Shown piece after piece: positions 2,166 to 34,900 of a stretch of 37,877 bases of DNA (positions are counted from its first letter, which is position 1; each line of letters starts with the position of its first letter). The position numbers and the translations under genes are program-made. The stretch is from an uncultured Muribaculaceae bacterium (GTDB taxonomy: Bacteria > Bacteroidota > Bacteroidia > Bacteroidales > Muribaculaceae), in the NCBI GenBank assembly GCA_964407165.1, contig CAYOUJ010000021.1, positions 1 through 37,877 of the forward strand, read 5' to 3'. The notes below the pieces were generated by a model. It saw nothing but the letters and a program-made list of their open reading frames with translations. It was not told the origin of the DNA and searched no databases.

Positions 2166-5100
2166 ATGAAGAACATTTGTTTTCAAATGAGTCGGAAAGC
2201 ATGGCTGGTGCTCGTGATGGTGCTTAGCCTCTCTTTCCCTGCTTTAGCGCAGAAGATTACGGTGCACGGCACCGTGGTTGACCCCGAGGGGGAGCCTCTG
2301 ATAGGCGCGTCGGTGCTTGTCAAGGGTACCTCCACCGGTGTGGCAACTGACATCGACGGCGAGTTCCGCCTCGACTGTGCATCCAATGCCACCCTGGTTA
2401 TCTCCTACGTAGGTTACAACACCAAGGAGGTGGCCGTCAACGGTCAGACCGAGCTCAACATCACCCTCGAGGAGAACGGCGTGATGCTGCAGGAGGTAGT
2501 GGCCATCGGCTACGGTGTAGTCAAGAAGTCTGACGCCACCGGCTCTGTGGCCGTCGTCAAGCCCGACGAGATCGAGGCCGGCATCTCCACCTCCACCCAG
2601 GACCTCCTGGTAGGCGCCAGCCCGGGCGTCGTCGTCACCACCGACGGTGGCAACCCGACCGGCAACGCTACCATCCGTATCCGTGGTGGTTCCTCACTTA
2701 CTGCAAACAACAACCCTCTGATCGTCATCGACGGCGTGCCCCAGTCTGACCAGAGCAACGCCGGTGGCACCAACGCCCTGTCGATGGTCAACCCGCAGGA
2801 CATCGAGTCGATGACCATCCTCAAGGACGCCTCCGCCACCGCCATCTACGGTAGCCGCGCATCCAACGGTGTCATCATCATCACCACCAAGAAGGGCCAG
2901 AGCGGCAAGCCGCAGGTAAGCTTCGCTGCCAACTGGCACATCAACACCGCCCGCAAGACCCTCGACCTGATGGACGCTTCGGAGTTCGCACAGGTCGTAC
3001 GCGAGCAGATAGGCACCGACGCCGCCATAGCCATGCTGGGCGACTCGAGCACCGACTGGCAGGACGAAGTGCTCCGCACCTCCTTCTCCCAGGACTATAA
3101 CCTCTCTGTTGGCGGCACCGCCGGCTTCCTGCCCTACCGCGTGATGGCCAGCTACACCAACAACCAGGGTATCCTCAAGACCTCCGGCATGCAGCGCACC
3201 ACCGTGGGCTTCAACCTCTCGCCGAAGTTCTTCAACGGCAAGCTCTCTATCAACGCCAACGCCAACGGCACCTACATCAACAGCCGCCAGGCTGACCAGG
3301 GCGCCATCGGCGGCGCTACCGCCTTCAACCCCACCCTCCCCGTCTACACCGACTATCCCACCATCGGCAACACCGGCAAGACCATGTACAATGGCTACAC
3401 CAACATCATCCTTGCCAACGGTGGCCCCGAGACCCAGGCTTCGCAGAACCCCCTGCAGCTGCTCGAGGATGTCCGCAACATCGGCGAGGTTTACTCTTCG
3501 AACGGCAACATCCAGTTTGACTACGCCCTCCACTTCCTCCCCGAGCTGCACTTCAACCTCAACCTCGGTTACCAGGTGTCGAAGAACCAGACGCTGAGCA
3601 ACACCGCCGACAACTCTGTCATGGCCTGGCGCAACAGCAACCTGACCTCGATGGGCGCAGCCGGCGCAGGCACCCACTACAAGTGGTATGAGCTGCAGCG
3701 CAACACCCTGCTCGACTTCTACATCAACTACCGCAACGAGTTCAAGGAGATCAAGTCGAACGTCGATGTGATGCTCGGCTACTCCTGGCAGCGCTTCGAC
3801 TACCACGGCCGCAACAACACCTACGTCAACACCCTCGGTTATGAGACCAACGCCGGCTACATACCCTACGCTGACGGTACCTATACCCTCAACTACGACA
3901 ACAATTCCGCACAGTACATCGGCCAGCCGGTGCTCAGCTCTCCCACCTACTACTGGGCAGGCCAGCTGCAGCTGCTGTCGTTCTTCGGCCGTTTGAACTA
4001 TACGTTCGACGACACCTACCTGCTCACGTTCACCCTTCGTGACGACGCCACCTCACGCTTCTCCAAGGACACCCGCTGGGGTCTCTTCCCCTCCGTGGCC
4101 CTCGGCTGGAAGATCATCAACATGCCCTTCATGGAGGGCGCACAGCGCGTGATGAACGACCTGAAGCTCCGTCTCGGCTGGGGTATCACCGGCCAGCAGG
4201 ACATCGGCTCCCTCTTCCCCTACCTGGCCACCTACACTGTCAGCTCCACCCAGGGCTACCAGTATCCCAGCCAGAACGGCACGTGGATCAACCCCCTCTA
4301 TCCCAACGCTTACGACGCTGACATCAAGTGGGAGGAGACCACCACGTGGAACGTCGGCGTCGACCTGGCATTCCTCAACAACCGCATCACGGCTGCCATC
4401 GACTGGTATCTCCGTGACACCGACGACCTGCTCGCCCGCACCCCCAACTACGGCGTGAACACCTCCAACTACCTCACCCGCAACATCGGCTCGCTCCGCA
4501 ACACCGGTATCGAGGTAACCATCGGCGCCAAGCCCGTAGTCACCAAGGACTTCACCTGGAACACCAGCCTCAACGTGGCCTGGAACAAGAACAAGATCAC
4601 CGCCCTGACCGGCGACACCGAGACTTCCTCCATCCCCGCTTCCGACCGCGGCATCCCCAGCGGCACCGGCGGTGACCTGCAGTGGAACCTCGTAGGCGAG
4701 CCCGCCTTCACCTATCGCGTATACCAGCAGGTTTACGACAACGACGGCAACCCCATCGAGGGCCAGTACGTCGACCAGAACGGTGACGGCGTCATCGACG
4801 ACAACGACCTCATCCTCTTCCACAGCCCCGATCCCACCTGGACCCTGTCGTGGAACAACACCTTCAACTACAAGAACTGGGACCTCGGCTTCACCCTGCG
4901 CGCCAACTTCGGCAACTGGGTATACAACAACCCCAAGTACGAGCGCTCGCGCCTCGACGCCGTCAGCGGCTACCAGCTCAACAACCTGCTGCGTGACACC
5001 TACCTGTTCAACACCACCTCGTCGCAGCTCAAGCTCAGCGACTACTTCGTGGAGAACGCCGGATTCATCCGCTGCGACAACATCACGCTCGGCTACACCT

Positions 5101-5270
5101 TCCCCGACTTGCTTAACGACAACCTGCGTCTCCGCCTCTTCGGCGCCGTCCAGAACCCCTTCGTCATCACCAAGTACAAGGGCCTTGACCCCGAGGTCTA
5201 CAACGGTATCGACAACAACGTCTACCCGCGTCCTATCACCTTCACCCTCGGCGTAGTTGCAACTTTCTAA
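2166..5270 (+). CDS. susC: SusC/RagA-family TonB-dependent outer-membrane transporter
   Basis: 1034 aa with a signal peptide. It has an N-terminal carboxypeptidase-D-like regulatory domain (ITVHGTVVDPEGEPLIGASVLVKGTSTGVATDIDGEFRL), a TonB-dependent receptor plug (NPLIVIDGVP, ILKDASATAIYGSRASNGVIIITTKKG), a long beta-barrel and a C-terminal aromatic residue. There is no N-terminal STN/anti-sigma extension. The start could alternatively be the ATG at 2187. Confidence 0.92.
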   Translation: MKNICFQMSRKAWLVLVMVLSLSFPALAQKITVHGTVVDPEGEPLIGASVLVKGTSTGVATDIDGEFRLDCASNATLVISYVGYNTKEVAVNGQTELNITLEENGVMLQEVVAIGYGVVKKSDATGSVAVVKPDEIEAGISTSTQDLLVGASPGVVVTTDGGNPTGNATIRIRGGSSLTANNNPLIVIDGVPQSDQSNAGGTNALSMVNPQDIESMTILKDASATAIYGSRASNGVIIITTKKGQSGKPQVSFAANWHINTARKTLDLMDASEFAQVVREQIGTDAAIAMLGDSSTDWQDEVLRTSFSQDYNLSVGGTAGFLPYRVMASYTNNQGILKTSGMQRTTVGFNLSPKFFNGKLSINANANGTYINSRQADQGAIGGATAFNPTLPVYTDYPTIGNTGKTMYNGYTNIILANGGPETQASQNPLQLLEDVRNIGEVYSSNGNIQFDYALHFLPELHFNLNLGYQVSKNQTLSNTADNSVMAWRNSNLTSMGAAGAGTHYKWYELQRNTLLDFYINYRNEFKEIKSNVDVMLGYSWQRFDYHGRNNTYVNTLGYETNAGYIPYADGTYTLNYDNNSAQYIGQPVLSSPTYYWAGQLQLLSFFGRLNYTFDDTYLLTFTLRDDATSRFSKDTRWGLFPSVALGWKIINMPFMEGAQRVMNDLKLRLGWGITGQQDIGSLFPYLATYTVSSTQGYQYPSQNGTWINPLYPNAYDADIKWEETTTWNVGVDLAFLNNRITAAIDWYLRDTDDLLARTPNYGVNTSNYLTRNIGSLRNTGIEVTIGAKPVVTKDFTWNTSLNVAWNKNKITALTGDTETSSIPASDRGIPSGTGGDLQWNLVGEPAFTYRVYQQVYDNDGNPIEGQYVDQNGDGVIDDNDLILFHSPDPTWTLSWNNTFNYKNWDLGFTLRANFGNWVYNNPKYERSRLDAVSGYQLNNLLRDTYLFNTTSSQLKLSDYFVENAGFIRCDNITLGYTFPDLLNDNLRLRLFGAVQNPFVITKYKGLDPEVYNGIDNNVYPRPITFTLGVVATF

Positions 5271-5295
5271 AATCCAAAAAGTTTAAGAAGTTATC

Positions 5296-6957
5296 ATGAA
5301 AAAATTCAATAAAATCATACTTTCGGCAGGGCTGGTAGCAATGGCCGCCTCGTTCGGTAGCTGTACCGACGACCTCGACCTTCTGCCCACCGACCCCAAC
5401 ACCCTCACTGCCGCAAACTTTGCCGAGGATCCCGAGGGCTACATGGACGCCGTCATGGCTGACGTCTACCTGCAGTTCGCAACGCAGGGCGCCAACGGCT
5501 CCGCTTCCGTCGAAGGCTTCGACGGCGGCATGTCCACCTTCCAGCGCTCCTCGTTCATCCTCGAGGAGGTCCCCTCCGACGAGGCCAACTGGCTCGCAGC
5601 CGACGCCGACTACGGCACATTCCAGTATGGTATCATCCCCGCCAACAACCGCGTGGTCTTCGGTACCTACTCCCGCTACTATATCAATGTTACCCTCTGC
5701 AACGACTTCATCCAGACCGTGCAGGCCGGTTACTTCCACCTCGACACCGACGCCCTCAAGGCAAAGGCTGACGAGTATATCCGCCAGTGCAAGATCCTGC
5801 GCTCGGGCTGCTACTGGTATCTCGTTGACTGCTTCGGCAACGTGCCCTACGCCGACGAGAGCACCAAGACCGGCTCCGTCCCCTCCCAGATCGGCCGCGC
5901 CGAGGTTGCCAACCGCGTGATGAACACCCTCGAGGAGGTCATCGCCGAGTATGAGCAGCTTGGCAACCCGACTCCCGCTTACGGCTACGTCGGCAAGGCT
6001 GCCGCCCAGGCCATCCTCGTCAAGTTCCTCCTCAACGCCGAGGTCTACACCGGCACCGCCCAGTGGAGCAAGTGCATCGAGGTCGCCCAGAAGCTCATCA
6101 ACGAGCAGAAGGGCCAGGGCTTCGAAGGCTCCGGCCTCTGCAACTATTACAACCAGCTCTTCGCTGCCAACAACAGCCTCTATGCCATCGGCGGCGGCGG
6201 CTACTGCCACGAGATCCTCTGGACCATCCCGCAGGACGCCACCAACCTCGTGTCCTGGGCCAACGGCACCTTCATGGTCAACGCCTGGATCGGCGAGACC
6301 TACGGCTGCACCAAGGCCAAGTACAACGCCGGCGACGCCTGGAAGTGTATGACCGCCCGCACCCAGTTCGTAGAGAAGTTTGAGTGGGACGACGCCGCCA
6401 TGAGCGAGTCCAAAGACACCCGCGTGGCCAACTGGATTACCTCCGCCGACGGCTTCAGCGTGCTCAACCCCGCCTTCGACCAGGACCACTACGGCGACAA
6501 CGGCTACCTGCCCATGAAGTTTACAAACTTCAACGTCGACCCCGAGACCGGTCTTGAGACCCCCGAAAACTCCCCGTCGCCCACAACTCAGCTTGGCATC
6601 GACTACCCGGTTATCCGTCTGGCCGAGATCTACCTGAGCTGCGCCGAGGCAATGTTCCACAACGGCCAGGTCACCGAGGCCCTCAACTATGTCAACCTCA
6701 TCCGTCGCCGCGCCGGCCTCGACAACTGGAGCACCCTGTCGCTGCAGGACCTCCGCGACGAGCGCTGCCGCGAGCTCTACACCGAGGCCACACGTCGTAG
6801 CGACCTTATCCGCTACGGCCAGTGGATCAGCGGCTACACCTGGAACTGGAAGAACCAGATAGCCACCGGTGGTGACTTCGCCAGCAACTTCACCCTCTAC
6901 CCGCTGCCCTCCAGCATCTGCGTGGGCGCAGGCTACGACCAAAACACCGGTTACTAA
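5296..6957 (+). CDS. susD: SusD/RagB-family nutrient-binding outer-membrane lipoprotein
   Basis: 553 aa with a lipoprotein signal peptide (AASFGSCTDD), sitting immediately downstream of susC (25-nt gap). It has a TPR-like alpha-helical SusD architecture, including the C-terminal IRRRAGL..LRDERCREL and YGQW motifs typical of SusD_RagB. Confidence 0.9.
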   Translation: MKKFNKIILSAGLVAMAASFGSCTDDLDLLPTDPNTLTAANFAEDPEGYMDAVMADVYLQFATQGANGSASVEGFDGGMSTFQRSSFILEEVPSDEANWLAADADYGTFQYGIIPANNRVVFGTYSRYYINVTLCNDFIQTVQAGYFHLDTDALKAKADEYIRQCKILRSGCYWYLVDCFGNVPYADESTKTGSVPSQIGRAEVANRVMNTLEEVIAEYEQLGNPTPAYGYVGKAAAQAILVKFLLNAEVYTGTAQWSKCIEVAQKLINEQKGQGFEGSGLCNYYNQLFAANNSLYAIGGGGYCHEILWTIPQDATNLVSWANGTFMVNAWIGETYGCTKAKYNAGDAWKCMTARTQFVEKFEWDDAAMSESKDTRVANWITSADGFSVLNPAFDQDHYGDNGYLPMKFTNFNVDPETGLETPENSPSPTTQLGIDYPVIRLAEIYLSCAEAMFHNGQVTEALNYVNLIRRRAGLDNWSTLSLQDLRDERCRELYTEATRRSDLIRYGQWISGYTWNWKNQIATGGDFASNFTLYPLPSSICVGAGYDQNTGY

Positions 6958-6978
6958 TAGTGTAAATATTATCTAACG

Positions 6979-7881
6979 ATGAAGAAATTTTCAATATATT
7001 TCGCAACCATAGTGGCCGTTCTGGGCCTCGCAAGCTGCGCCCAGGACAAGGATCCTGTATACCAGGCTCCCACCACCTTCGTCCTCAATGAGCCGGTGTT
7101 CCAGAACGACTACTACCAGCTCCAGGAGGGCAACTCCTTCTACGTATTCTGCTCGCAGCCTGACTACGGCTACTCCGCAATCACCAACTACGCCCTGCAG
7201 GTATCACTTACCCAGGACTTCGCCACCTACGAGGAGATAGCCTCCGCAGGCACCGGCACATCCGCCGCCATGCAGATCAAGGACGACAAGATGGCCCTCG
7301 CCATCTGCCAGCTCTACGGCGTCGAGACCGAGGAAGACATGGCCCAGTTTAACGCCGAGACCGGTGTCAAGGTCTACATCCGCGCCCACGCCTGGCTCAC
7401 CGGCGTCGAGAGCTCCAACATCGTCTCCAACGTCGTCTCCCTCAACAAGGTGATGCCCTACTTCGCAGTCCCGCAGCCCGACTTCATCTACCTCGTCGGC
7501 AAGCCCGAGGGCTGGGTAGGCCCCACCGAGAGCAACGCCGCCCACTATGCTGACTGGAAGCTCCTCGAGAACCAGGACGAGATCGGCAGCAAGGTATACC
7601 ACGGCACCTTCTACATCGGCAACGGCGCCGACGGCGAGGCCATGTTCCGCTTCTATACCGCCCTGACCGGCTGGGACGACGACTCCTACGGCTCTCAGGA
7701 GGAAGACAACCCCATCGACCAGTTCTTCACCGACAACCTCTGGCAGTATAACCTCGTCAAGGGCAAAGGCTCCTTCAACTTCCCCGACTGGCCCGGCGGC
7801 GTCATGGTCATCACCGTCGACATGAGCACCGACAACCCCTTCGTGGTTATCGAGGGCCGTCCCGGCGAAACGCTTGAGTAA
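6979..7881 (+). CDS. SusE-like outer-membrane lipoprotein (PUL accessory surface protein)
   Basis: 300 aa with a lipoprotein signal (VLGLASCAQD). It occupies the position after susD, and the N-terminal region is typical of the SusE N-domain. The call rests on position and topology rather than on conserved catalytic motifs. Confidence 0.55.
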   Translation: MKKFSIYFATIVAVLGLASCAQDKDPVYQAPTTFVLNEPVFQNDYYQLQEGNSFYVFCSQPDYGYSAITNYALQVSLTQDFATYEEIASAGTGTSAAMQIKDDKMALAICQLYGVETEEDMAQFNAETGVKVYIRAHAWLTGVESSNIVSNVVSLNKVMPYFAVPQPDFIYLVGKPEGWVGPTESNAAHYADWKLLENQDEIGSKVYHGTFYIGNGADGEAMFRFYTALTGWDDDSYGSQEEDNPIDQFFTDNLWQYNLVKGKGSFNFPDWPGGVMVITVDMSTDNPFVVIEGRPGETLE

Positions 7882-12070: not shown

Positions 12071-12086
12071 CTCGCTGTCATATCAC

Positions 12087-12140
12087 GCGAAGAAACAAAG
12101 GAATAAAAAGAAATTTCTTTTTATTCCTTTGTTTCTTCGC
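12087..12140. terminator. Long perfect hairpin: a bidirectional intrinsic terminator after ribH
   Basis: 24-nt perfect inverted repeat gcgaagaaacaaaggaataaaaag / ctttttattcctttgtttcttcgc with a 6-nt loop. The stem is flanked by an A/T run that gives U-tracts on both strands. Confidence 0.8.
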
Positions 12141-12190
12141 ATGATGGTCAGTGAAATTAGTTGTATATAGCCTCCACTTCATACATTTAA

Positions 12191-12315
12191 TTTTCAGGAC
12201 GGGTCACATTGTCAACCTTGTCAGGACGCATGTCAACCAACACAGGACAATTGTCAACTTTATCAGTAAAAACTGTCAACCATTTTCAGGACGGGTCAAT
12301 TTTCAGGACGGGTCA
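12191..12315. repeat. Operator-like repeat array: 3x ttttcaggacgggtca (two directly tandem), 4x TGTCAAC, 5x CAGGAC
   Basis: 17-mer copies at 12191, 12283 and 12300. CAGGAC-n3-TGTCAAC occurs twice, 22 bp apart. The array sits between the ribH terminator and the promoter of the downstream module. Confidence 0.8.
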
Positions 12316-12350
12316 AAATGAACCAATATGATTAACTAAGATTAACAAAT

Positions 12351-12358
12351 GGGGGGGG
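12351..12358. repeat. G8 homopolymer tract about 20 nt upstream of the -7 promoter element
   Basis: caaatGGGGGGGGtaaatttagc. This is a simple-sequence tract located in the -33 region of a promoter. Confidence 0.9.
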
Positions 12359-12377
12359 TAAATTTAGCAAAATTTCG

Positions 12378-12385
12378 TAAATTTG
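12378..12385 (+). promoter_or_regulatory. -7 promoter element TAAATTTG (tttcgTAAATTTGccg) for the TerB-like/SPFH module
   Basis: Perfect TAnnTTTG match. The 13-mer tttcgtaaatttg is shared with the ispB promoter at 18011. A second TAAATTT lies 20 nt upstream. Confidence 0.55.
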
Positions 12386-12564
12386 CCGTGTCTTTACCTC
12401 CCGGCGGCTTGCACACGGTCGCCGGACGACATGCTGTAAAGTGTTTGTTCACCCTGCATGGGAGGATGACGTTTCCCGCGCTTTCCAGAGATGTCTCAGA
12501 CCATGAAACGAGTTCCACCCCGGGCCCAGGGAGACGATCCCGGATATCAAACCAACATTACCAA

Positions 12565-13734
12565 ATGACTTTAGCTGATTTTGAGAAGTTTGTAGATCTT
12601 ACCCTTGCCGACGGAGTCATCACGCCGCAGGAGCAGCAGGCTCTTGTCAAGCGGGCTGCAGAGCTTAACCTTTCGCCGGACGAGGTGCAGATTATCATCG
12701 AGGCGCGCGTGCATGAGATGAACCAACGCAAGGAGCAGCAGGCCAAGACGGCTGCAGCGCCGGCACCGGCGGCATCCAACAAGGCTGGCAACGTGCGCAA
12801 ATGTCCCGCCTGCGGCGCCCCTATAACGGGCACCAGCACATCGTGCCCCGAGTGTGGGCATGTGTTTACCGGCGTCGCCGCCGTAAGCAGCGCCACGCGC
12901 CTGTTTGAGATGATACAGGAGGCCCAGACCCGTGCGTCAAAGGCGCTCACCGAGCATGAGGCCCGTAAAAATCAGCGACTGGCTGACCTCGACGTAAAGC
13001 AGGCCGAGTCAACCAACCTACTCACCGAGAAGCAGAACGAGGGGGGCACGATGGCCAAGATAATGGCGTCGAAGACCAAGCAGCAGGCCGAGCGCGCCGC
13101 CCTGGCCCAGAAACACGCTCAGGAGCGACAGGATCTCGTGCGCGAGCTTGAGAGAAGCCGCGCCGCCCTGAGCAAGGACCTGATGGAGGAGAAGCGCCAA
13201 ATCATCAAGAACTTCCCGGTGCCCAACACCCGTGAGGATCTCATGGAGCTGCTGGCCATGGCCTCGTCGAACGCCTACGACAACGACGGCGTCATCGGCC
13301 CGGAGGAGGAGGTGTGGATACAGAAGACCGACCAGATCTATACCAAGATCAAGGCTGTGAGCAAAAACGACAAAGACCTTCTCGAGGAGGCCACAAACGT
13401 GGTGATCGGCCTGATGAGCCGTCTCCCCAACGCCTACAAGCACTTCACCTCCCTTCCCACAGGATATGAGTCCCGCATGGCCGAGCAGGTGAAAGCCGCC
13501 CGCGAGAACAAGAAGGAGATGAAGAAGGAGGCTCTGAGGGACTCGCTGATGGCCTACAAGACGTGGATCGTCGGCTCCGGCGCGGCCGTCTTGTTCGGAC
13601 TGCTCCTGATGCTCTGCGGCGCCGCTATTTTCGGATTCCTGATTTTTGTCGTCGGCCTTTGCGTGGGCGGCAAGATGATAAAGAAAGGCTACGACAACTA
13701 CAACGTCGAGAAGCGCAACATAGAGGCATACTGA
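12565..13734 (+). CDS. Membrane-anchored protein: TerB-like N-terminal domain, C4 zinc ribbon, long coiled coil, C-terminal transmembrane segment
   Basis: The start is taken at the ATG for MTLADFEKF, because the track ORF from 12349 begins with non-coding-looking residues. It contains a TerB/DjlA-N-like helix pair (LADGVITPQEQQALVKRAAELNLSPDEV) and a zinc ribbon CPACG-x11-CPECG. About 200 aa are charged coiled coil, and the C-terminus is hydrophobic (VLFGLLLMLCGAAIFGFLIFVVGLCVGG). Confidence 0.6.
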   Translation: MTLADFEKFVDLTLADGVITPQEQQALVKRAAELNLSPDEVQIIIEARVHEMNQRKEQQAKTAAAPAPAASNKAGNVRKCPACGAPITGTSTSCPECGHVFTGVAAVSSATRLFEMIQEAQTRASKALTEHEARKNQRLADLDVKQAESTNLLTEKQNEGGTMAKIMASKTKQQAERAALAQKHAQERQDLVRELERSRAALSKDLMEEKRQIIKNFPVPNTREDLMELLAMASSNAYDNDGVIGPEEEVWIQKTDQIYTKIKAVSKNDKDLLEEATNVVIGLMSRLPNAYKHFTSLPTGYESRMAEQVKAARENKKEMKKEALRDSLMAYKTWIVGSGAAVLFGLLLMLCGAAIFGFLIFVVGLCVGGKMIKKGYDNYNVEKRNIEAY

Positions 13735-13735
13735 C

Positions 13736-15232
13736 ATGGGGATATTCGGAAAAGGCAAAGGCGGCGGCTTGATGAACGTCATCCGCTGCGACGAACAAGA
13801 ATATCTGGTGTGGAAGTGGCGCCCTGCCGGGCAGGACGCCAACACCACATCGCGTGAGAACGCCATACGCTGGGGCAGCTCGCTGCGCGTGAAAGACGGC
13901 GAGGTGGCCGTGTTTGTCTACAAGCAGAAAGCCGGCGCTATGCAGGAGTTTATCGAAGGACCCTTCGACGAGATCCTCAAGACTGCCAACCTCCCGATCA
14001 TATCCAAGATCGTGGGGATGGCTTACGGCGGCGAAAGCCCGTTCCAGGCCGATGTCTATTTCATCAACCTCGCGGGTATCATCCAGGTGAAGTTTGCCAT
14101 CCCATACTTCGATGTGCAGGACCCGCGCTTCCCCGATATGTCGGTGCCGGTGGCCACGGGTGGCACCATCTCGTTCAAGATTGACGACTACAAGGCTTTC
14201 ATCAAGGTCAACCGCCTGATCAACTTTACCCTCGACGACTTCAAAAATCAGATCAAAGACGCCGTGGTGCGCCGCGTCAAGGGCAACATCACCAACGTGC
14301 TCTACGCAATAAATCTGCCTTTAGTGCAGATCGAGCGCAACATAGAGGGGATCGGCGACGCTATCAAAGAGAAGCTGAAGGTCGACCTGGAGGACTTCGG
14401 CGTCACCCTGCGCCGCTTTGACCTCAGCCGCATAGAGCCTGACAAGGAGAGCGAGAACTGGCTCAAGCTCCAGCAAGTGACGGCCGAATTCTCGATGCGC
14501 TCCACGGCAACCAACCAGAATATTGCCATCGACACGGCCAACGCCCAGGCACAGGCAAACATACAGAACATCCACGACATGCAGGCCATCAACACGCAGA
14601 ACATGTCGGAAACGCTGCGCATACAGCGCGAGGAGATGCAGCGCGCCCAGCGCGCCCAGACCGAGCAGGCCGCATACGCGCAGAAACTGCAGAGCGAGCA
14701 GGCCAACATTGGCGCGTTCTCCGTCGGGCGCCAGGCCGACGTGCTTGCTGCCGCGGCCAACAATCTTGGCCAGATGGGCAACATGAACATGGGCTCGGGC
14801 AATGGCGGCTTCAATCCGGCCGGCATGATGACCGGCATGGCCGTCGGCGGCGCTGTCGGCCAGCAGATGGCCCAGATGATGGCGCAGATGAACAACGGCC
14901 AAATGGGCGGTGGCGCCGCGCCTACTCCCCCGCCGGCGCCTGCGGCACCCACACCGCCGCCCATGCCCGGACAGCTGAGCACCACCCCGGATTATTATCT
15001 TGCCGAGAACGGCCAACAAAGCGGGCCGTTCAGCGTGGCGCAGCTCAAGCAGCTCGTCGACGCCGGGAAGATGACCGCACAGTCGATGGTCTGGAAAAAC
15101 GGCATGCCCCAGTGGGCGCAAGCCGCACAGTTGTCAGAGCTGCAGGTGCTCTTCATGCCCGCCGGCTCCACCGCGGCCCCCGGCATGCCCCCCGTGCCCC
15201 CACCTCCCGCAGGAATGCCTCCAATGCCCTAA
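13736..15232 (+). CDS. SPFH/Band-7 (Band_7_1 family, flotillin-like) protein with a C-terminal DUF4339 (GYF-like) domain and a Pro-rich tail
   Basis: 498 aa. The N-terminal MGIFGKGKGGGLMNVIRCDE..LVWKW region is characteristic of the PF13421 family (B. subtilis YdjI-like). It has a central Gln/Ala-rich coiled coil. The C-terminus reads YYLAENGQQSGPFSVAQLKQLVDAGKMTAQSMVWKNGMPQWAQA (DUF4339). Its start is 2 nt after the previous stop. Confidence 0.75.
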   Translation: MGIFGKGKGGGLMNVIRCDEQEYLVWKWRPAGQDANTTSRENAIRWGSSLRVKDGEVAVFVYKQKAGAMQEFIEGPFDEILKTANLPIISKIVGMAYGGESPFQADVYFINLAGIIQVKFAIPYFDVQDPRFPDMSVPVATGGTISFKIDDYKAFIKVNRLINFTLDDFKNQIKDAVVRRVKGNITNVLYAINLPLVQIERNIEGIGDAIKEKLKVDLEDFGVTLRRFDLSRIEPDKESENWLKLQQVTAEFSMRSTATNQNIAIDTANAQAQANIQNIHDMQAINTQNMSETLRIQREEMQRAQRAQTEQAAYAQKLQSEQANIGAFSVGRQADVLAAAANNLGQMGNMNMGSGNGGFNPAGMMTGMAVGGAVGQQMAQMMAQMNNGQMGGGAAPTPPPAPAAPTPPPMPGQLSTTPDYYLAENGQQSGPFSVAQLKQLVDAGKMTAQSMVWKNGMPQWAQAAQLSELQVLFMPAGSTAAPGMPPVPPPPAGMPPMP

Positions 15233-15244
15233 AACATTAACATC

Positions 15245-15598
15245 ATGATAAACAATTTCAACGCCGTAGACCAGCTGGTAGAGTTCGGCCTGGGAATAGC
15301 CGTGGCACAGCAGATGGTCAAGATGATGAACACCACCATGGCCGGGGTCAACGCCCCCACGGTGAAAAATCCCTCTATCGACACATTCCGCATGCCCAAC
15401 CCAAACGGGCATCTTGTGCAACTCTATGTCGGCACCTCCGAGGGTGTGGCCGGGCCGTTTGACGAGAGCCAAATCTCCGCCCTGCTTGCAGCGCACAAAA
15501 TCACCGCCGACACCCTGGCATGGATGCCCGGCATGGAGACGTGGACGCAAGCCTCAAACATACCGTTGGTCAACAAATACATCCTTTTGCAGTCATGA
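15245..15598 (+). CDS. Small stand-alone DUF4339 (GYF-like) domain protein
   Basis: 117 aa. LYVGTSEGVAGPFDESQISALLAAHKITADTLAWMPGMETWTQASNIP is paralogous to the C-terminal domain of the preceding gene. Confidence 0.6.
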   Translation: MINNFNAVDQLVEFGLGIAVAQQMVKMMNTTMAGVNAPTVKNPSIDTFRMPNPNGHLVQLYVGTSEGVAGPFDESQISALLAAHKITADTLAWMPGMETWTQASNIPLVNKYILLQS

Positions 15599-15936
15599 GC
15601 CGCAACGCCACCTTCCCCGTCATCCTGATCATCGCGGGTGCCGCGCTTGCCTGGGTGGGATACACCCTCGGCGTGGCAGACCTCCAAAAATGGCTCCTGG
15701 CGGTAATCACTTTCGTGGAGTTTGCCGTGGCCGGCTGGGCGTCATACATCATAGCCCGGGCCGAAGACGGGCGCAACCGCGTCAACCTGCGCGTGGTGAC
15801 AATCCTGGTCATGACGGCCGCGCTGGTCATGAACTTCATCTTCTCTTTCTTCGCGTTCACGGCAGTGGCAATATGCGTCCCAAACATATTGCTCATGCTT
15901 ATACTGGTCGTATCAATGCTCAATATCAAATACTAA
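15595..15936 (+). CDS. Small integral membrane protein (about 113 aa, 3-4 TM), translationally coupled via an ATGA overlap
   Basis: The start is corrected to the ATG for MSRNATFPVILIIAG, which overlaps the stop of the upstream gene. The protein is strongly hydrophobic. The N-terminal 25 aa of the track ORF overlap the previous gene. Confidence 0.5.
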   Translation: MSRNATFPVILIIAGAALAWVGYTLGVADLQKWLLAVITFVEFAVAGWASYIIARAEDGRNRVNLRVVTILVMTAALVMNFIFSFFAFTAVAICVPNILLMLILVVSMLNIKY

Positions 15937-15953
15937 TCAAAACCCATCAAATT

Positions 15954-16250
15954 ATGGATGCTCAAACGCCTGCAATCCCTGTTGCCCAGCCCAAGAAGAA
16001 GGCCGGCTGGTTCTTGGAACTCGTATTCTTACTGCTGGCAGTGGCCATCGATGTGTTCACCGTCATCACCGGCTTCAACAAGGGTCTCGAGACAGCGCTG
16101 TATGTCTGTCTGGCCCTGTGTGTGGTCTACTTCATCATAGTCATGTGCTCGGGGCGCCTGCGCCGCAACTCCTACATCAAGTGGCTGGCCTGGATCGGCC
16201 TGATTGATGCCGCTTACTGGATGTATGACATGTTTAGTGCCGCCGGCTGA
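15954..16250 (+). CDS. Small integral membrane protein (about 98 aa, 2-3 TM)
   Basis: It lies in the frame of track ORF 15414..16250. Only the segment from MDAQTPAIPVAQPKKKAGWFLELVFLLLAVAIDVFTVITGF onward looks coding. The upstream part of that ORF is Arg/Pro-rich read-through of the neighbouring genes. Confidence 0.5.
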   Translation: MDAQTPAIPVAQPKKKAGWFLELVFLLLAVAIDVFTVITGFNKGLETALYVCLALCVVYFIIVMCSGRLRRNSYIKWLAWIGLIDAAYWMYDMFSAAG

Positions 16251-16373
16251 TAACCCCATCCCAACGAGTGATAATGAGGGCGCAGCCCTCAAAGATTGTA
16301 GCCGTGGGTGGCCGCGCTTCGCGCGTCTCACCCACGGCTACCGTCACGATACATTACTCACGAAAGCGAGGCG

Positions 16374-16955
16374 TCACTTGCCGCAACAGCCCCCTTTGGG
16401 CGAGCCGTTGCAGTCGCAGTCTGCGCCGCCGCAGTCGCCATCGGCGCAACCGCCGCCGGAGCAGCAGCACGAGGGCTTGAGCTCCTCGGGGGTGGCGTCA
16501 CGCACGGTGAGTATCTCGCCTTCGAGGCGCACGGGCTTGCCGGCCAGCGGGTGGTTGAAGTCCATCTTCACACTGTCCTTGCCCACGCTGACCACCTTGC
16601 CGTTGACGCGGAAGCCGTCGCCGGTCATCATCGGCACCTCGGCGCCGGGCTTGATGAACTCGGCGTCAAAGACGCCGTCGACCAGGAATATCTCCTTCTC
16701 GAGCGTCACGACGGCCTCGGGGTCGTAGGGGCCGAAGGCCTCCTCGGCCGTGCAGGTGACGTCAAACTTGTCGCCGACCTGCTTGCCCTCGAGGGCCTCC
16801 TCGAGGGGACGGATCACGTACTGGGTGACGCCGAAGATGATGCGTTCGGGATCCTCGCGGTCCATCTGGTGGCGCAGGGTTTCCTTGCCATCGGGGCCTA
16901 TCTCATAGACGTTGTAGGCCATCTCGACGTATTTGCCGGGTTGTATTTTCTCCAT
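16374..16955 (-). CDS. slyD: FKBP-type peptidyl-prolyl cis-trans isomerase SlyD with a Cys-rich metal-binding tail
   Basis: 193 aa. It has an FKBP domain interrupted by an IF (insert-in-flap) domain. The C-terminal tail is CCCSGGGCADGDCGGADCDCNGSPKGGCCGK, as in SlyD. Confidence 0.85.
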   Translation of the reverse strand: MEKIQPGKYVEMAYNVYEIGPDGKETLRHQMDREDPERIIFGVTQYVIRPLEEALEGKQVGDKFDVTCTAEEAFGPYDPEAVVTLEKEIFLVDGVFDAEFIKPGAEVPMMTGDGFRVNGKVVSVGKDSVKMDFNHPLAGKPVRLEGEILTVRDATPEELKPSCCCSGGGCADGDCGGADCDCNGSPKGGCCGK

Positions 16956-23780: not shown

Positions 23781-23838
23781 AAACAGGGAAGGCAACCGAT
23801 CATTATGCTTGGCCGCTGCGCGGCCAAGAGGTAAGCAA

Positions 23839-25056
23839 ATGGAAATAAATCTCACTGACATACCCGCCGACGTGCAGCAGGCCAAGGCCCGCTACGGAAT
23901 CGTCGGCAACTCGTCGGCGCTCATCGCCGCCGTCAGCCGTGCCATCCAGGTGGCGCCCATCGACCTTAGCGTGCTCATAACAGGCGAGAGCGGCACCGGC
24001 AAGGAGTTCTTTCCCAAGATTATACACGGCGGCAGCGCGCGCAAGCACGGCAAGTATATCGCCGTGAACTGCGGCGCCATCCCCGAAGGCACCATCGACT
24101 CCGAGCTGTTCGGCCACGAGAAAGGCTCTTTCACCGGCGCCGTGGCCACTCGCAAGGGTTACTTCGAGGAGGCCGACGGGGGCACCGTCTTCCTCGACGA
24201 GGTGGCCGAGTTGCCGCTGACCACGCAGGCGCGCCTGCTGCGCGTGCTCGAGAGCGGCGAGTTTATGAAGGTCGGGTCGAGCACCGTGCAGAAGACCAAC
24301 CTGCGCATCGTCGCCGCCACCAACGTTGACATGGCGCGGGCCGTGGCCCAGGGCCGATTCCGCGAGGATCTTTACTACCGCCTCAGCACAGTGCAGATAC
24401 AGCTGCCGCCGTTGCGCGAGCGCGGCCGCGACGCCCTGCTGCTCGCCCGCAAGTTTGCCGCCGACTTCGCCGAGCGCTACCGCACGGACCCCATCACCCT
24501 GGACGACAGCGCCCGCGATGCCATCCTCCGCTACCGCTGGCCCGGCAACGTGCGCCAGCTCAAGAACGTCATCGACCAGGTGTCGCTCTTCGAAGGGGGG
24601 CGCCGCGTCGACGCCGAGCGGCTCGAGCAATATATGCCGTCGCTGACAGAGAGCTACACCCCAATGGTAACCAACGCGACCGGGGGCGGCTCCGGGCGCT
24701 ACGACATGGAGCGCGAGGCGCTCTTCGGCCTCATCTTCCGGCTGCAGGAGCGCATCGCCGCGCTCGAGGAGGCGCTGAAAGGCGCCCCGCAGCAGATAGC
24801 CGAGCAAACCGAGCCGGAGACCGTCACAGCCGAGCCGGTGCCCACCGCCACGCTGGTGCGCTACGACCCCGACCTGCACCGCTTCCATCCCGTCGGAGAA
24901 ACACCCAAGACCCTCGAGCAGACTGAGAAGGAATTGATACGCACCACCCTCGAGCGCAACAACGGGCGCCGCAAGGCCACCGCCGCCGAGCTCAACATCT
25001 CCGAGCGCACACTCTACCGCAAAATCAAGGACTACGGCCTCGAAGACGTCTTCTAA
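23839..25056 (+). CDS. Sigma-54-dependent transcriptional activator lacking an N-terminal sensory or receiver domain (PspF-like architecture)
   Basis: The start is taken at the ATG for MEINLTD. The AAA+ sigma-54 interaction domain begins immediately ([12 protein letters not shown], Walker [15 protein letters not shown]-like GSFTGAV, Walker [16 protein letters not shown]). A long Pro/Glu-rich linker and a C-terminal Fis-type HTH ([27 protein letters not shown]) follow. Confidence 0.85.
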
Positions 25057-28935: not shown

Positions 28936-31900
28936 TTATTTGCGGAGGGTGCGGGAACGGGCGGTGCCGTCGGAGTAGACGGTCTGCTCGACGACGACGG
29001 TGCCGGGGGCCGGGTTGGCGATCTGCACGCCCTGGAGGTTGAAGTAGCGGACGGCGACGACGGTGGCGTCGTCGGCGCCGACAGCCTCGATTCCGTCGAT
29101 GACGTTGCCGAGCTTGATGGTGTAGACGCGGACGAGGTCGCCGGCACGGAGGGTGATGGTGCCGGTGCGGCCGGAGGCCTCCTGCAGCGGGTGGATTATG
29201 CCCTCGTCGGCGTCGATGAAGAATTCCTCGGAGGCTTCCCATGTCAGGCCCGGAAGGTATGCGACGTGTATCTTGTCGGTGACGCCCTCGGCGGTGTCAT
29301 CGCCGCTGAACACAAGCAGTGCGGCGTGGAAGTTGGCCTCGGGCACGTCGGCGAAGGCCTTGAGCGTGGGCATTGCGTACTGGTGGTAGTCCCAGAGGTC
29401 GCTCAGGGACGTGGTGATAAGCTCACGGTCGGTCAGGCCCTTGGCGAACGAGGCGGAGTACTCGTCTTGCACGAGCGCGGGGTTGACATCGGTGCTATAG
29501 TAGCAGGAGTCGACGCTGACCTTGGTCTGCGTGGAGGTGCAGTACATGGCAGCGGCGCAGGTGGTGCCGTCGGTGCAGTTGATCTTGCCGTAGGCTATGT
29601 TGCGGCGTAGCGTGGCGCCGGTGGAGGCGCCGCAGATGCCGCCGACGAACATCTCGCCGGTGAGGGTGCCGTAGTTTGCGCAGTCGTGGATGTTGCCGGT
29701 GGTGGCGTATCCGCTGATGCCGCCGACGTGGCCGTAGGCGGTGGTGGTGCTCTGCCGGTCGGCGCGGGTGGAGGTGACGCTGCCGAGGTTGATGCATGAG
29801 CTGATGTGCGACGACTGGGAGGTACCCGCGATGCCGCCGGTGCGGTTGCCCACGCTCATGACGGTGCCGTAGTTGACGCAGTCGGTGATGGTGCCGGAGA
29901 TGTTTCCGAAGACGCCGCCGACGGCGTAGGCGTTATTGGGGGTGGCGGAGCCGTTGACCACGGTGGCGTAGTTGACAAGGTTGCGGTAGACGGCGGAGGC
30001 TCCGTTGCCGTTGCCGATGACGCCGCCGAGGTCGTAATAGTTGCTGTAGACCGAGTCGCCGTAGTTTACGCAGTTGGTGACTACGTTGGCATACGAGCCG
30101 GCCTGGCCGATGACGCCGCCGACGTAGGTCTTGTTGCCGATCACCGTGCCGTAGTTGACGCAGGAGTCGACGGTGCATGCTGCGGTGAATGAGCCGAAGC
30201 AGCCGCCGAGATAGTTCTCGCCGCGGACGTCGACGTGGTTGACGCAGTTGATGAACGTTCCGGAGGCGCTGTAGCAGATGCCGCCGGCGCCGGCGGAGGT
30301 GAATACCAGCTCGCCGAAGTTCTCGAGGTCGCGGTAGAGGCCGCCGCCGGTCATGGTGCTGGCGATGCCGCCGATATATCCGGAGGCGGTGATGACGCCG
30401 TAGTTCTTGCAGTCGATCATGTCGCCGCCGCAGCGTGCGGCGATGCCGCCGGCAGTGGTCTTGCCGCAGGTGATGTTGCCGTAGTTGACGCACCCCTTGA
30501 CGAGCGAGCCTGCCTGTGTCTGCTCGACGATGCCGCCCATGGAGGTGCCGGAGCAGTCGAGGTTGGCGCGGTTGACGCAGTTGATGATGCTGCCGCCGGC
30601 GTAGAGATAGCGGACGAGGCCGCCGACGTCGGCTGCCGTGGTCATGGTGGTGATGAGCGTGGCGTCTTCGTTGACCACGTTCTCAATGGTGCCGTAGCAC
30701 TTGTCGACCAGTGCGGAGACGTAATAGTAGGCGGCGATGGAGCAGGTGCCCAGGCGCAGGTTGCGCACGGCGCCCTTGTCGGTGAGGGTGCCTATGATGG
30801 CCACGTACTGATAGGGCTTGACAGACCGGTCGGTGCGGTCGATGGTGAGGTAGTTGATGCTGTGGTTACGTCCGTCGATGATGCCGCCGAAGGAGTTGCT
30901 GTCGAAGCCGATGGGTGTGAACTGCGGTATGCCGGTGAAGTCGAGGTCTGCCGTTATAGCGAAGTGGTTGCCCTCGAAGGTCAGGCCGTAGGTGTTGGTG
31001 TAGTCAGAGAGTGTGATCAGGTCGGCTGCGCAGGTGATGAGGAAGGGGTCGGCCTCGGTGCCGCTGCCGGCGAAAGGTGCGAAGAAAGCCGTGACGGCGT
31101 ATTCGCGGGTGAACGCGCCGGAGGTGCCGACGAGGGTGATGCTCTGGGGCTGTACGCAACCGGTGACCTTGAGGGTGTCGCCGGCGATGCTGAAGTATTC
31201 GGAGGCGGGTATGCTCCACGTAAGGCCGTCGGCCTTGGAGAGCTGTGCGTTGGTGGTCATGGAGCCTACGGTCTGCCCGTCGCCGAAGGTGACGTACATC
31301 GAGCGGAGGGTAGAGGCTGCGGTTTCCGAGGCGCGGGCCTTGAGCACGGGATACTTGCCGGCGGCGTAGTCGAATATGTCGGCGGAGAGGCCCTCGATGG
31401 CCGTTCCGGTGGTCAGCACGGAGGTGTTGACCGCGGATATGCCGTCGCGGGGGAGTCCGTTCATCGCGCCGAGGGTGCAGAGCTGGTTGTCATAGTAGCA
31501 GGCCTCGAGCACGGCGGGAGCCGAGGCTACCTGGCCGCCGAAGGCGCCGCAGTAGGTGCCGCCCTCGCAGATTACGATGCCGGTGTTGACGCACCCGCGC
31601 AGCTGTGCCGCGGAGGTGACGCCGCCGATGATGCCGGCGGCGATGGTGTAGGCCTGCACGGTGCCCTGGTTGACACAGTTCTCGATGACGCAGGCATCGG
31701 CGCCGCTGGTGGCGTCGCTGTTGAAGACTATGCCCGCTGCGCCGCCGGTGGAGGCGTATTCGTAGGCGTTGGTGACGGCGTCGGTGTGGACGTAGCCGTC
31801 GTTCTGGCAGCCGGATATGGTGGAGCCGCCGTACATCTGCCCGACGATGCCGGCAGCGTATCGGTAGCCGGCGGTGATGGTGCCGGCGTTGTAGCAGTTT

Positions 31901-34900
31901 ATGGCACGGGCGCCGGCATTGAGGCGGGTGCAGATGCCGCCGACGTAGTTGGCGGAGACGGTGATGTCGGCGTAGTTGCGGCAGTTTTCGACGGTGCCGT
32001 TGCAGATGGCCACGAAAGCGGCGAGGCCGGCGTAGCCCTTGAGCGAGCATGAGGCGTCCATCGTGATGTCCTTGAGGTGGCCGTTGGGGCCGAGGATGCC
32101 CACGAGGGCGACGGTCTGGCGCGACGAGGAGGCGACGGGGCTGCCGCTGCTGTCGAGCGTGAGGCCGTTCATCGTCCAGTTTTTGATGGTGTAGCCGCGG
32201 CCGTCGAGGGTGGCGTCGAAGTAGTGGGTCTCGTTGGTGTCGTCGCCGATACCGTAGAAGTCGGTGACGCCGGTAAGGTCGATGTCGTTGCCCAGGACGA
32301 AGTAGTCGCCCGTGTAGTGGAGGCCGTTGGAGGTAACGCCCGTGTTGAGAGTGCGCAGGTCGTCGACGGTGCGGAGCACGAAGGGGTCAGCCTCGGTGCC
32401 GCTGCCGGGGAACTGCGAGGGGGAGACGTTGAGCTGGTACAGGCGGGTGAACGTGCCGGCGTCAGTGGTGAAGCGTGCGGAGATGAACTCCTTGCCTTGG
32501 TCGCCGGTGAGCGTCACGTCGGAGCCGCTGATGGTCAGGGCACCATGAGAGAGGACGGGCGCGTTGTCGTCGTCGAGGAGATACCAGGCCACGTCCGAGG
32601 GGGTGTCGAGGGTGAACGCGGTCTTAACATAAGAGGAGGTCTGCCCCTGGCCGAGATGTATGGCGGCGCCGAAATATCCGGCGACGTCGGCGGCCATCCA
32701 CTTGGGCGTGGGATAGCGGCCGGCGGTGAACGTCCACATATCCGAGCCGAAGCCCTCGGGACCGTTGGCCGTGGTCAGGGAGTCGGTGGCGGTGTAATGG
32801 TCGGCGGTGAGGGTGCCGGCCATCTGTCCGTCGACGTACACATTATTAAATATGGTGCCGTCGTTGATGACACCGGCGACGCCGTTGTCGACGAGCGTCT
32901 GGCCGTTGCCGTAGACCTGGCCGGTGGAGATGACGCGTGTGAGGGTGTTATTGTTTGAGGCGAGGTTGCTGAGATATCCGGCGATGCCGCCCAGGCGTGT
33001 GCCGGTGCTGGTGCCCTGGACATAACATGATGCGACGCAGTCTTCGATGGTGGCGCCGGAGGAGTATCCGACCAGGCCGCCGGCATAGCCGTTGGAGCTG
33101 GTGGCGACGGTCTGTATCATCACGGAGGCGGCGCATGAGCGCAAGGTGCAATAGGTGACCAGGTTACCGGCGATGCCGCCGACCCAGCCGTAGGAGCTGG
33201 TGTCATACATCGTGCCCAGCACGTAGCAGTTTTCGATGAGCACGGGTGAGGCGGAGGCGGAGGAGCAAGCGCCGACTATGCCGCCGAGGCCGTGCTCGAT
33301 GCTGGTGGAGGGCACTGACTGCTTGGCGGAGATCTGTGCGGAGCAGTCTTTGATGGTGCCGCGGTAGATCATGCCGGTGATGCCGCCGAGCTGGCCCAGG
33401 CCGGTGAGGTAGCCCACGTAGTGGCAGCCGCTGACGTATGTGCTGTAGCCGACGATGCCGCCGGCGTAGCGCTCGTAGGTGACGAGCTGGCCGCTGACGG
33501 AGCAGTCTTCGATGCGACCTAAGGAGTAGCCGGCGACGAAGCCTGAGTAGCGGCCGTAGGTCAGCATGCGGGCCGTGGTCATCTTGACACCCCGGACGAC
33601 GCCGGAGGCGCCGACGTAGCCGAAGATGCCGGTGTATTCGGCGCTGCGCTCGACGTAGAAGTTCTTGATGGTGTAGTTGCCGCCGTCGTAGGTGCCGTTG
33701 AAGCAGTTGGTGGCGTCAGCGCCGACAGGGCGGTACTGCCCGACGTAAGAGGCGAAGTCGATGTCGGCTGTCTGCTTGAAATATTTGCCCTCGTAGGTCA
33801 GGCCGGAGGCCACGGCGGCGGCGAGCAGGTCGAGGTCGGCCGTGGAGGCTATCTGGTATGGGTCAGCCTCGGTGCCGCTGCCGGTGAAGGAGTAGGCCTG
33901 CGAGGAGGGGAGGGTGAGCACGCCCGGCTCGACGGAGATGGTCGAGCTGTTCATGCCGTAGAGACAGCTGGTGGAGGCCGACGAGGTGGTGGCGGCGAAG
34001 ACGCCCCAGGGGCCGAAGCCGAAGCCGGTGGCGCTGAGCGTGCCGGTGATGTTGCCCGGGATGCCCTTGTTGCCGTAGGTGCCGGTGCCCCACTCGGCGG
34101 GGTATGTGACGTAGGACGTCGCCGTCAGGCTGGTGTAGCTCATCATCTGCGGCTCCAGGGTGAAGGTGCCGTCGGCGTTAAGGAAGACGGTCACCTCGCG
34201 GCCGGAGTTGGCCAGGTTGGCGATGAGAGCCTGCGTGGGCGTGGTCTGCTTGACGAAGACGGGATACGAGGTGTCGGAGAAGGTCTGTGCCGAGAGGTCG
34301 CGGAGGCTGCCCGTGAGCGTGGCGTTGGAGGGGTAGAGGCGCATGGTGGTGCTCATGGCCAGGGCGGAGCCGACGTATTCCGAGGTCTTGTCGGTGACCA
34401 GCACGGCCCAGCCGCTGCCGAGGGTGAAGCACCCTTCGGCGTCGTCCCAGGTGAAGACGAGGTTCTTGGCCGTGCTGTAGCCCCACTGCACGGCGTCGAA
34501 ATAGACCATCTCGAAGTCGCCGTAGGGGCTCATCGTGTATACCACCTGGTGGGGGAAGGTTATGGTGGCGGAGGTGGCGTCGTAGGTGCCGGTGAGGGTG
34601 CCGAGGTTGTAGAAATTGGTGAGCGTGGCCGTGCCGTCGGTGCCGACGGTGAGCTGCGGCATGGCTGTGAACCCTTCGCGGGCGGTGCCGGTCTGTATGT
34701 AGTCATACTCGGCATAGTAGCCCGTGGGGCTTGCGGGGGCCGACTCTGCGCGGTGGCTGAGCGCGGGGCTGTGTGTGTCGAGCGCGCCGGGGAGGACAAT
34801 CTCTTGGAATCGCTCGTCGGCGACCGACTGCGCGGAGGCGCCGAGGGCGCACACGGCCATGGCGACGGCCATGGCTGCGGCGCGTAGGTTGAGGTAGTAA

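Follow-up and report, generated by a model that had tools for sequence, protein, structure and literature searches.

Introduction

In Bacillus subtilis, the soluble protein YdjI/SamI depends on YdjG and YdjH, both of them membrane proteins, in order to form foci at the membrane (PMC8581546; bioRxiv 10.64898/2026.02.06.704340). YdjG combines two zinc ribbons with an NTF2-like domain and a transmembrane (TM) segment, YdjH is a TPM-domain protein, and YdjI itself ends in a zinc ribbon (PMC11237479). Proteins that join an SPFH domain to a GYF domain, with proline stretches flanking the GYF domain and genes for TM proteins as neighbours, were described by Balaji & Aravind in 2007 (PMC2034487). The GYF domain of GltJ binds a proline-rich sequence of AglZ with micromolar affinity, and about 44% of the GYF proteins of bacteria are paired with a zinc ribbon, for which proteins a role as switches has been proposed (PMC11135422). 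Here we analyse a group of five genes, G1 to G5, from an uncultured Muribaculaceae bacterium, the second of which encodes an SPFH protein of the Pfam family Band_7_1 fused to a GYF domain; the whole stretch of DNA analysed, 37,877 nucleotides (nt) long (contig CAYOUJ010000021.1), is referred to as the window. YdjI, which from general knowledge and from the 'ydjI' labels on Ralstonia Band_7_1 genes we take to be a member of the same family, is to our knowledge the only Band_7_1 protein that has been studied, and we know of few bacterial flotillin-like proteins that are less well understood than this family.

We found that G1 to G4 are conserved as a unit across several Bacteroidota orders, with G5 outside it, and we read them as an operon, conserved in Bacteroidota, whose products would build an SPFH scaffold of the YdjI/SamI (Band_7_1) class beneath the membrane, a reading to which we give a probability of roughly 0.55. 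A previous sequence-only reading of this DNA had proposed a five-gene module for envelope stress or membrane organisation, possibly an undescribed variant from Bacteroidales. The genes are arranged as follows.

12565-13734, + strand: G1, 389 amino acids (aa)
13736-15232, + strand: G2, 498 aa
15245-15598, + strand: G3, 117 aa
15595-15936, + strand: G4, 113 aa, its start overlapping the stop of G3 (ATGA)
15954-16250, + strand: G5, 98 aa

The five open reading frames (ORFs) are co-directional and tightly packed, as had been claimed, with intergenic distances of 1, 12, -4 (the ATGA overlap) and 17 nt; only the first gap had been given differently, as 2 nt. The start of the unit had been placed at 12191, a position that falls in a repeat array and holds no gene, the first gene being G1 at 12565. 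The translations of G1 to G5 are verbatim those of called proteins in a public collection, and their starts are identical to the public gene calls. A longer G1, beginning at an in-frame ORF start at 12349, was ruled out by these gene calls, by codon-position GC content and by alignment: codon-position GC is flat (0.51-0.54) in the segment that begins at 12349, which is therefore non-coding, and the orthologues of G1 begin at the position equivalent to 12565. Third-position GC content (GC3) is 0.75-0.81 in G1 to G5, with about 0.40 at the second position; real genes have a GC3 of 0.75-0.89.

A four-gene unit conserved across Bacteroidota orders

The G1 alignment, used as query against one genome for each GTDB species, returned 24 loci from Bacteroidales, Flavobacteriales and a Kapaibacterium. 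G2 and G3 adjoin G1 in nearly all of those with enough flanking sequence, and an ORF of about 115 aa with four TM segments comes after G3 almost everywhere. The flanking genes differ from locus to locus, and recA, ribH, slyD and the polyprenyl synthase gene do not travel with the module. A second and independent scan, of metagenome contigs and anchored on G2, added 80 loci; the full set comprises 107. Two orders dominate, G1-G2-G3-G4 in 37 of these and its circular permutation, G2-G3-G4-G1, in 22, most of the others being cut by contig ends. If the count is restricted to the 34 loci that are anchored on G2 and have 2.5 kb or more of sequence on each side, all four genes are present in 28 and G1 in 33. 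All-against-all clustering of the ORFs of the first 27 loci and the window gave shared clusters for G1, G2/G3 and G4 only, with no further conserved neighbour.

The operon is common and its families are large, with more than 8000 G2 clusters at 90% identity and 4306 G1 representatives at 50% identity (2343 of them at E<=1e-10), and their members come from gut and rumen Bacteroidales as well as from aquatic Flavobacteriales. The co-conservation proposed for five genes was thus found by the neighbourhood analysis for G1 to G4, which are kept together, and not for G5, for which there is no homologue. No description of the operon, or of its annotation names, was found in the searchable literature, which agrees with the idea of an undescribed system; the restriction to Bacteroidales does not hold, since the module extends to Flavobacteriales and Kapaibacteria.

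The SPFH protein G2 and the stand-alone GYF protein G3

G2 matches Band_7_1 (PF13421) with an E-value of 2e-25 (90.1 bits, cutoff 24) and GYF_2 (PF14237, the former DUF4339) with 2e-18 (66.2 bits, cutoff 25.8), and more than 100 homologues carry the same Band_7_1 annotation. The order along the protein is the Band_7_1 SPFH domain, an alpha-helix some 105 residues long (240-345), a segment rich in Gly and Met (~355-390), polyproline, the GYF_2 domain (420-469) and a polyproline tail, so that the C-terminus consists of GYF_2 and polyproline, without a Cys motif. This is the architecture that had been proposed, a Band_7_1 SPFH protein with a DUF4339 domain and a Pro-rich tail, with both profiles above their cutoffs and with polyproline before the GYF domain as well as after it. 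G2 is without a TM segment; over 19 residues its hydropathy reaches 1.41 at most.

The AlphaFold2 model of G2 has a mean predicted local distance difference test score (pLDDT) of 65.6 and is confident in the folded parts, with a pLDDT of about 90 in the SPFH core (110-235); it also contains the helix 240-345, the GYF domain (420-473) and, between them, a short helix rich in Met (374-385). A Foldseek search with this model returned stomatin, flotillin, prohibitin and HflK/C (E 2e-6 to 3e-4), and also QmcA, together with the GYF domain of GltJ, which is also the sole sequence relative of G2 in the PDB (7z3c, E 1e-6). The match of the fold to the HflK/C and QmcA-YbbJ cages could suggest a module of the HflK/C-FtsH or stomatin-NfeD type, in which the SPFH protein regulates protein quality control or a membrane protease; a G2 cage would enclose a client and G4 or G1 would be NfeD-like. 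The pairing of an SPFH gene with a gene for a small membrane protein is, moreover, the classical SPFH-NfeD operon logic. Yet at E<=1 none of the five proteins has an NfeD, protease or AAA domain, the 107 loci share no conserved protease gene, and the membrane anchor that HflK/C and stomatin have at the N-terminus is missing from G2, so that we consider this explanation unlikely.

G3 also carries a GYF_2 domain (E 3e-12, 46.4 bits, cutoff 25.8), which is 35% identical to that of G2 (E 1e-8). By this similarity G3 is a paralogue of the C-terminal region of G2, in agreement with its earlier description as a stand-alone paralogous DUF4339 protein. The resemblance goes beyond the GYF domain. The orthologues of G2 share a Gly/Met-rich block, 'MNPAGMMTGMxMGGAMGxQMAGMMN', and those of G3 an N-terminal motif, 'F..D.L.EFG.G...AQQM...MN' (in the window 'EFGxGxAxAQQMxxxMN'), which is at least 80% conserved and resembles the Gly/Met-rich block of G2.

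Polyproline is a conserved companion of the GYF domain as well: a polyproline (PPP) tail is present in 77 of 95 full-length G2 orthologues, runs of proline flank the GYF domain on both sides in 74 of the 95, and about half of the G3 orthologues also end in polyproline. This conservation suggests that the GYF domains of G2 and G3 may bind proline-rich peptides. The zinc ribbon is here on the product of the adjacent gene, G1, and the GYF domains are on G2 and G3. A second explanation starts from the same features, namely that the proteins form a landmark or switch of zinc ribbon and GYF domain, comparable to the part of GltJ that lies in the cytoplasm, which would recruit proline-rich or GTPase partners to a site on the membrane for polarity, division or the positioning of surface machinery, with SPFH as a platform only. 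It is compatible with the GYF domain of G2 being most similar to that of GltJ, with the frequent pairing of GYF proteins and zinc ribbons in bacteria (PMC11135422), and with the presence of the two domains on adjacent gene products. We regard it, however, as quite unlikely, as no MglA/MglB or AglZ-like genes are linked, obvious proline-rich ligands lie within G2 itself, and the hosts include gut Bacteroidales.

G1, a zinc-ribbon membrane protein with a TerB-like hairpin

G1 comprises a TerB/DUF533-like helical hairpin (~3-60), a C4 zinc ribbon, a further helical hairpin (109-216) and a helical domain (217-290). Towards its C-terminus it has a hydrophobic anchor (333-369), seen both in the model and in the hydropathy profile. 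Its AlphaFold2 model has a pLDDT of 84.5 and is all-alpha except for the ribbon. The zinc ribbon has a Pfam match (Zn_ribbon_3) in 24 of 24 family members; G1 of the window scores 23.6 bits, just below the cutoff of 27, and the cysteines C80, C83, C94 and C97, which form two CxxC knuckles, are invariant in 24 sequences. The match of the window protein to TerB (PF05099) is partial, covering profile positions 13-44 of 118 (E 0.03, 15 bits, cutoff 24.4). Together with the matches of the family (best E 6e-5 for TerB and 7.5e-6 for DUF533), this profile evidence points to a TerB-like helical hairpin, not a whole TerB domain. The anchor and the C4 ribbon had thus been read correctly from the sequence, whereas TerB is matched only in part, and the coiled coil, put at about 200 aa, spans about 110.

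In the segment 217-290 of G1 a nearly invariant block, 'FPVPNT.EDLLELLAMA..AYDNDG..EEE.W.QK', forms a small helical domain. No Pfam model exists for this block (the 'FPxPNTxEDLLEF' domain), and a Foldseek search of the G1 model against the PDB gave no significant fold match. Relatives of G1 range from about 165 to about 600 aa and have in common this domain and a head of one to three TerB-like repeats with the zinc ribbon; variation affects the coiled-coil hairpin and extends even to the membrane anchor. The closest relative of G2 (65% identity), for example, adjoins a G1 of 232 aa without the hairpin. A reading of the hairpin as PspA/ESCRT-III-like, which had been put forward as a check on the coiled coil, was rejected, as there is no match to the PspA_IM30 profile, the structural matches are generic only, with no specific signal, and the short G1 of 232 aa does without it. 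Directly upstream of the short G1 variant, at the loci of the closest G2 homologue, lies a gene for a 283-aa multi-TM protein without a Pfam match (positions 4419-5270 in locus L026, also in L025 and L027), possibly an extra member of the module in that lineage.

The domains of G1 bear on two further explanations. The first is a unit for metal or tellurite-type chemical stress, in which the TerB-like domain and the zinc ribbon would sense metal or redox state; TerB is matched in 19 and DUF533 in 18 of 24 family members, and the four cysteines are invariant. The TerB match, however, takes in no more than about a quarter of the profile, no other ter genes are linked, and zinc ribbons are usually structural, which makes a metal-sensing unit improbable. 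The second is an anti-phage or conflict system with membrane effectors: one related locus adjoins AbiEii and an ATPase, and there are weak PADLOC matches to PDC-S48 at the TerB-like region (E 0.001). PADLOC gave no significant match to known systems, only weak and partial ones (E>=7e-4) on the coiled-coil and TerB-like segments; only 2 relatives were found in 2.9 million viral contigs (IMG/VR), the neighbourhood is one of housekeeping genes with a GC content in line with the flanks, and there is no enzyme or toxin domain. A role in defence is thus the least probable of the explanations that we weighed. A phage origin of the operon was rejected likewise, given the lack of meaningful PHROG matches and the presence of only those 2 loci in IMG/VR.

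Small membrane proteins G4 and G5

The two membrane proteins of about 100 aa that had been predicted, the first coupled through the ATGA overlap of G3 and G4, were corroborated: G4 has four TM segments and G5 has two to three. G4 matches the hidden Markov model (HMM) of the 4-TM ORFs that trail G3 in related loci with an E-value of 2e-15, and the 15 members of its family have no Pfam family in common. A match of G4 to TspO/MBR (24.6 bits, cutoff 24) occurs in the window protein only, one of the 15 family members, and was set aside as compositional and spurious. G5 is coding-like (GC3 0.75). It was not found in related loci of the module, and a search of 5.8 billion proteins detected no homologue. 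With no match to the HMM of the G4 family and no similarity to G4, it was rejected both as a G4 paralogue and as a member of the module, and it is probably a real gene that travels in the same transcription unit as a lineage-specific passenger.

A proposed scaffold at the inner membrane

We hypothesise that G2 would form oligomers by means of its SPFH domain and its long helix (~105 residues), in the manner of stomatin, flotillin, prohibitin and HflK/C. G1, tail-anchored and with its TerB-like hairpin and zinc ribbon in the cytoplasm, and the 4-TM protein G4 would then hold G2 at the cytoplasmic face of the inner membrane, by analogy with YdjG and YdjH, which anchor YdjI. The GYF domain of each G2 subunit may bind the polyproline that flanks the GYF domain on neighbouring subunits, giving rise to a multivalent network, which G3 could join or cap since it has the same Gly/Met-rich motif and a GYF domain as G2. 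The operon would probably have a role in membrane organisation or in the handling of envelope stress, and this is the weakest step.

Several points weigh against such a scaffold and temper our confidence in it. The model for G1 to G4 is built on sequence and predicted structures, and the N-terminal 105 residues of G2 are conserved yet poorly modelled, so that the geometry of the oligomer is not given by the model. Some members of the G1 family are without a hydrophobic segment. G1 and G4 are unrelated to YdjG and YdjH, which makes the anchoring analogy one of organisation only. We infer co-transcription from gene spacing only, and among the other large ORFs of the window neither PspA nor a stress regulator was found nearby. 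A far more ambitious version would make the operon a phylum-wide and hitherto unrecognised Bacteroidota machine that organises the inner membrane, with a cage or ring of soluble SPFH protein, tail-anchored TerB and zinc-ribbon receptors, GYF-polyproline cross-links tuned by free GYF protein, switching between dispersed and clustered states, and an envelope-stress role like that of the PspA-linked SPFH modules of Firmicutes; this is conceivable and, on balance, doubtful.

Boundaries and upstream region of the operon

The operon lies between two sets of inverted repeats and behind an array of direct repeats, as listed here.

12082-12145, no strand assigned: perfect palindrome of 32+32 nt without spacer (97% complementary score), directly after ribH, hairpin- or terminator-like, upstream boundary
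12189-12320, + strand: direct-repeat array of five same-strand CAGGAC-N(3-5)-GTCA units, three of which are exact 16-mers TTTTCAGGACGGGTCA, interleaved with TTGTCAAC
12351-12358, + strand: poly-G tract of 8 G
12378-12385, + strand: putative promoter TAAATTTG
16276-16341, no strand assigned: two hairpins between the convergent G5 and a slyD-like gene, downstream boundary

The first of the downstream hairpins is GAGGGC-GCA-GCCCTC (16276-16290) and the second has a 13-bp stem (16298-16341). The two strong terminators that had been placed at 12087 and about 16275 correspond to these structures, which are present at both ends; neither was scored in an intrinsic-terminator scan because there is no T-run at either. 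Two independent Logan contigs consist of exactly this operon (12111-16331 of the window), and their ends fall inside the upstream palindrome and the 16298-16341 stem. A mobile element or cassette of 4.2 kb was rejected on this ground: since the ends lie within inverted repeats, the contigs are most simply the product of breaks in the assembly graph. The gene that converges on G5 (16374-16955, - strand) encodes a SlyD-like FKBP whose tail at the C-terminus, rich in Cys, Gly and Asp (CCCSGGGCADGDCGGADCDCNG...GGCCGK), is likely metal-binding.

The density of the repeat array had been pointed out from the sequence, and the array is indeed non-random, with 3 exact 16-mers found against 0.03 expected and with all 5 matches to CAGGAC-N(3-5)-GTCA of the 37.9-kb window in 12189-12320 and none elsewhere in the window. 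It resembles operator or iteron sites and is possibly a target for some DNA-binding protein. It is not conserved with the module, however: no such array was found upstream of the orthologous modules in seven related loci, and on this comparison it is specific to this lineage. The poly-G tract has 8 G in the window and in the Logan assembly SRR10165008, and 7 G in SRR10165007, the sole other difference over 4.2 kb being a G to A change at 14907. The 7G/8G difference arose either through strand slippage close to the putative promoter or from an error in sequencing the homopolymer.

The -7 promoter consensus of Bacteroidetes is TAnnTTTG, and the element at 12378-12385 fits it, an inferred assignment. 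It is followed by a non-coding leader of about 170 nt with flat codon-position GC. A riboswitch or other structured leader was ruled out, as an Rfam search gave no relevant match, only hairpin look-alikes at the 12082-12145 palindrome, and the folding of the leader is nothing unusual (z -0.14). The window also encodes a sigma-54 enhancer-binding protein (23809-25056, + strand), with an AAA+ domain from residue 31, a C-terminal HTH_8 domain and no N-terminal sensory domain, which is a PspF-like architecture. Control of the operon by this activator was rejected, there being no -24/-12 site upstream of G1; across the window -24/-12 matches are fewer than expected by chance, and no link between the activator and the operon was established.

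The window is chromosomal Bacteroidota DNA of about 60% GC, as is seen from recA, ribH, QueC and PdxA and from a SusC/SusD/SusE-like polysaccharide-utilisation cluster (2166-7881, + strand) upstream of the operon. On the other side, an ORF of 1990 aa (28936-34908, - strand) has no Pfam match at E<=1e-5, and the adjoining ORFs of 463 and 307 aa could not be annotated either.

Comparison with known systems

The closest parallel is YdjGHI/SamGHI of B. subtilis. In both cases the Band_7_1 SPFH protein is without a membrane anchor of its own, and its gene shares one operon with those of a zinc-ribbon membrane protein and of a second membrane protein (PMC8581546, PMC11237479). The differences are equally clear. 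The operon has no pspA gene, as the sequence-only reading had observed, and neither has the rest of the window; the PspA_IM30 profile matches neither the five proteins nor the other large ORFs of the window. G2 ends in GYF and polyproline where YdjI ends in a zinc ribbon. Compared with the description of YdjG, G1 has a single zinc ribbon and, besides a TerB-like hairpin and an all-alpha domain, an anchor at its C-terminus, and compared with that of YdjH, which has a TPM domain, G4 is a bare 4-TM protein; TPM_phosphatase has no match at E<=1 in any of the five proteins. The stand-alone GYF protein G3 is an addition with respect to YdjGHI. The resemblance to pspA-ydjGHI that had been proposed thus stands for the Band_7_1 SPFH protein, the zinc-ribbon membrane partner and the small polytopic membrane protein, while G1 and G4 are not relatives of YdjG and YdjH, and what is shared with YdjGHI is the SPFH subfamily and the operon logic only.

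The proteins of Balaji and Aravind (2007) show the same SPFH and GYF fusion, with proline stretches around the GYF domain and adjacent genes for TM proteins (PMC2034487), and GltJ (Attia et al. 2024) offers a GYF domain that binds a proline-rich sequence, in a family where zinc ribbons are common (PMC11135422). Those reports concern single proteins or a motility machine, and a four-gene operon, the family that combines TerB-like and zinc-ribbon domains, a stand-alone GYF paralogue and a shared Gly/Met motif are not described there. The arrangement of an SPFH core followed by a long helix is that of the cages of HflK/C, QmcA-YbbJ, stomatin, flotillin and prohibitin. In contrast to these assemblies, G2 has no N-terminal membrane anchor or hairpin and is accompanied by no NfeD or FtsH partner, the NfeD profile (PF01957) having no match at E<=1 in the five proteins.

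The combination of a Band_7_1 protein, a zinc-ribbon protein and a polytopic membrane protein of small size is seen again, with other partners, in Bacteroides finegoldii (YidD-like, SPFH-GYF, then a zinc ribbon with TPR) and in Ralstonia (DUF350, a Band_7_1-SHOCT protein labelled 'ydjI', then a zinc ribbon with DUF4178). The partner families differ from those described here, and G2 is only 25-28% identical to the SPFH proteins of the two. In B. finegoldii (NZ_OY725907.1, 3327-7516) the genes encode an HTH regulator, a hypothetical protein, the YidD-like protein, the Band_7_1 and GYF_2 protein, a hypothetical protein of 251 aa and the zinc-ribbon and TPR protein; this SPFH protein is the second of its kind, 27.5% identical to G2, and the module is paralogous. 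The sequence is labelled as a plasmid and carries obgE, adk and hpt. Given the recurrence of the trio, we treat the operon as one variant of a broader class.

As a compact system of four proteins with explicit interaction motifs (a zinc ribbon, a Gly/Met-rich helix that is shared, and GYF with polyproline as its counterpart), the operon could show how an SPFH scaffold without an anchor gets recruited and cross-linked, and what Bacteroidota use for the handling of membrane stress. It also brings to light, in the 'FPxPNTxEDLLEF' proteins, a large unannotated protein family. Taken together, the operon is a relative, so far uncharacterised, of the membrane-stress scaffold YdjI/SamI from Bacillus, and not a wholly new kind of system.

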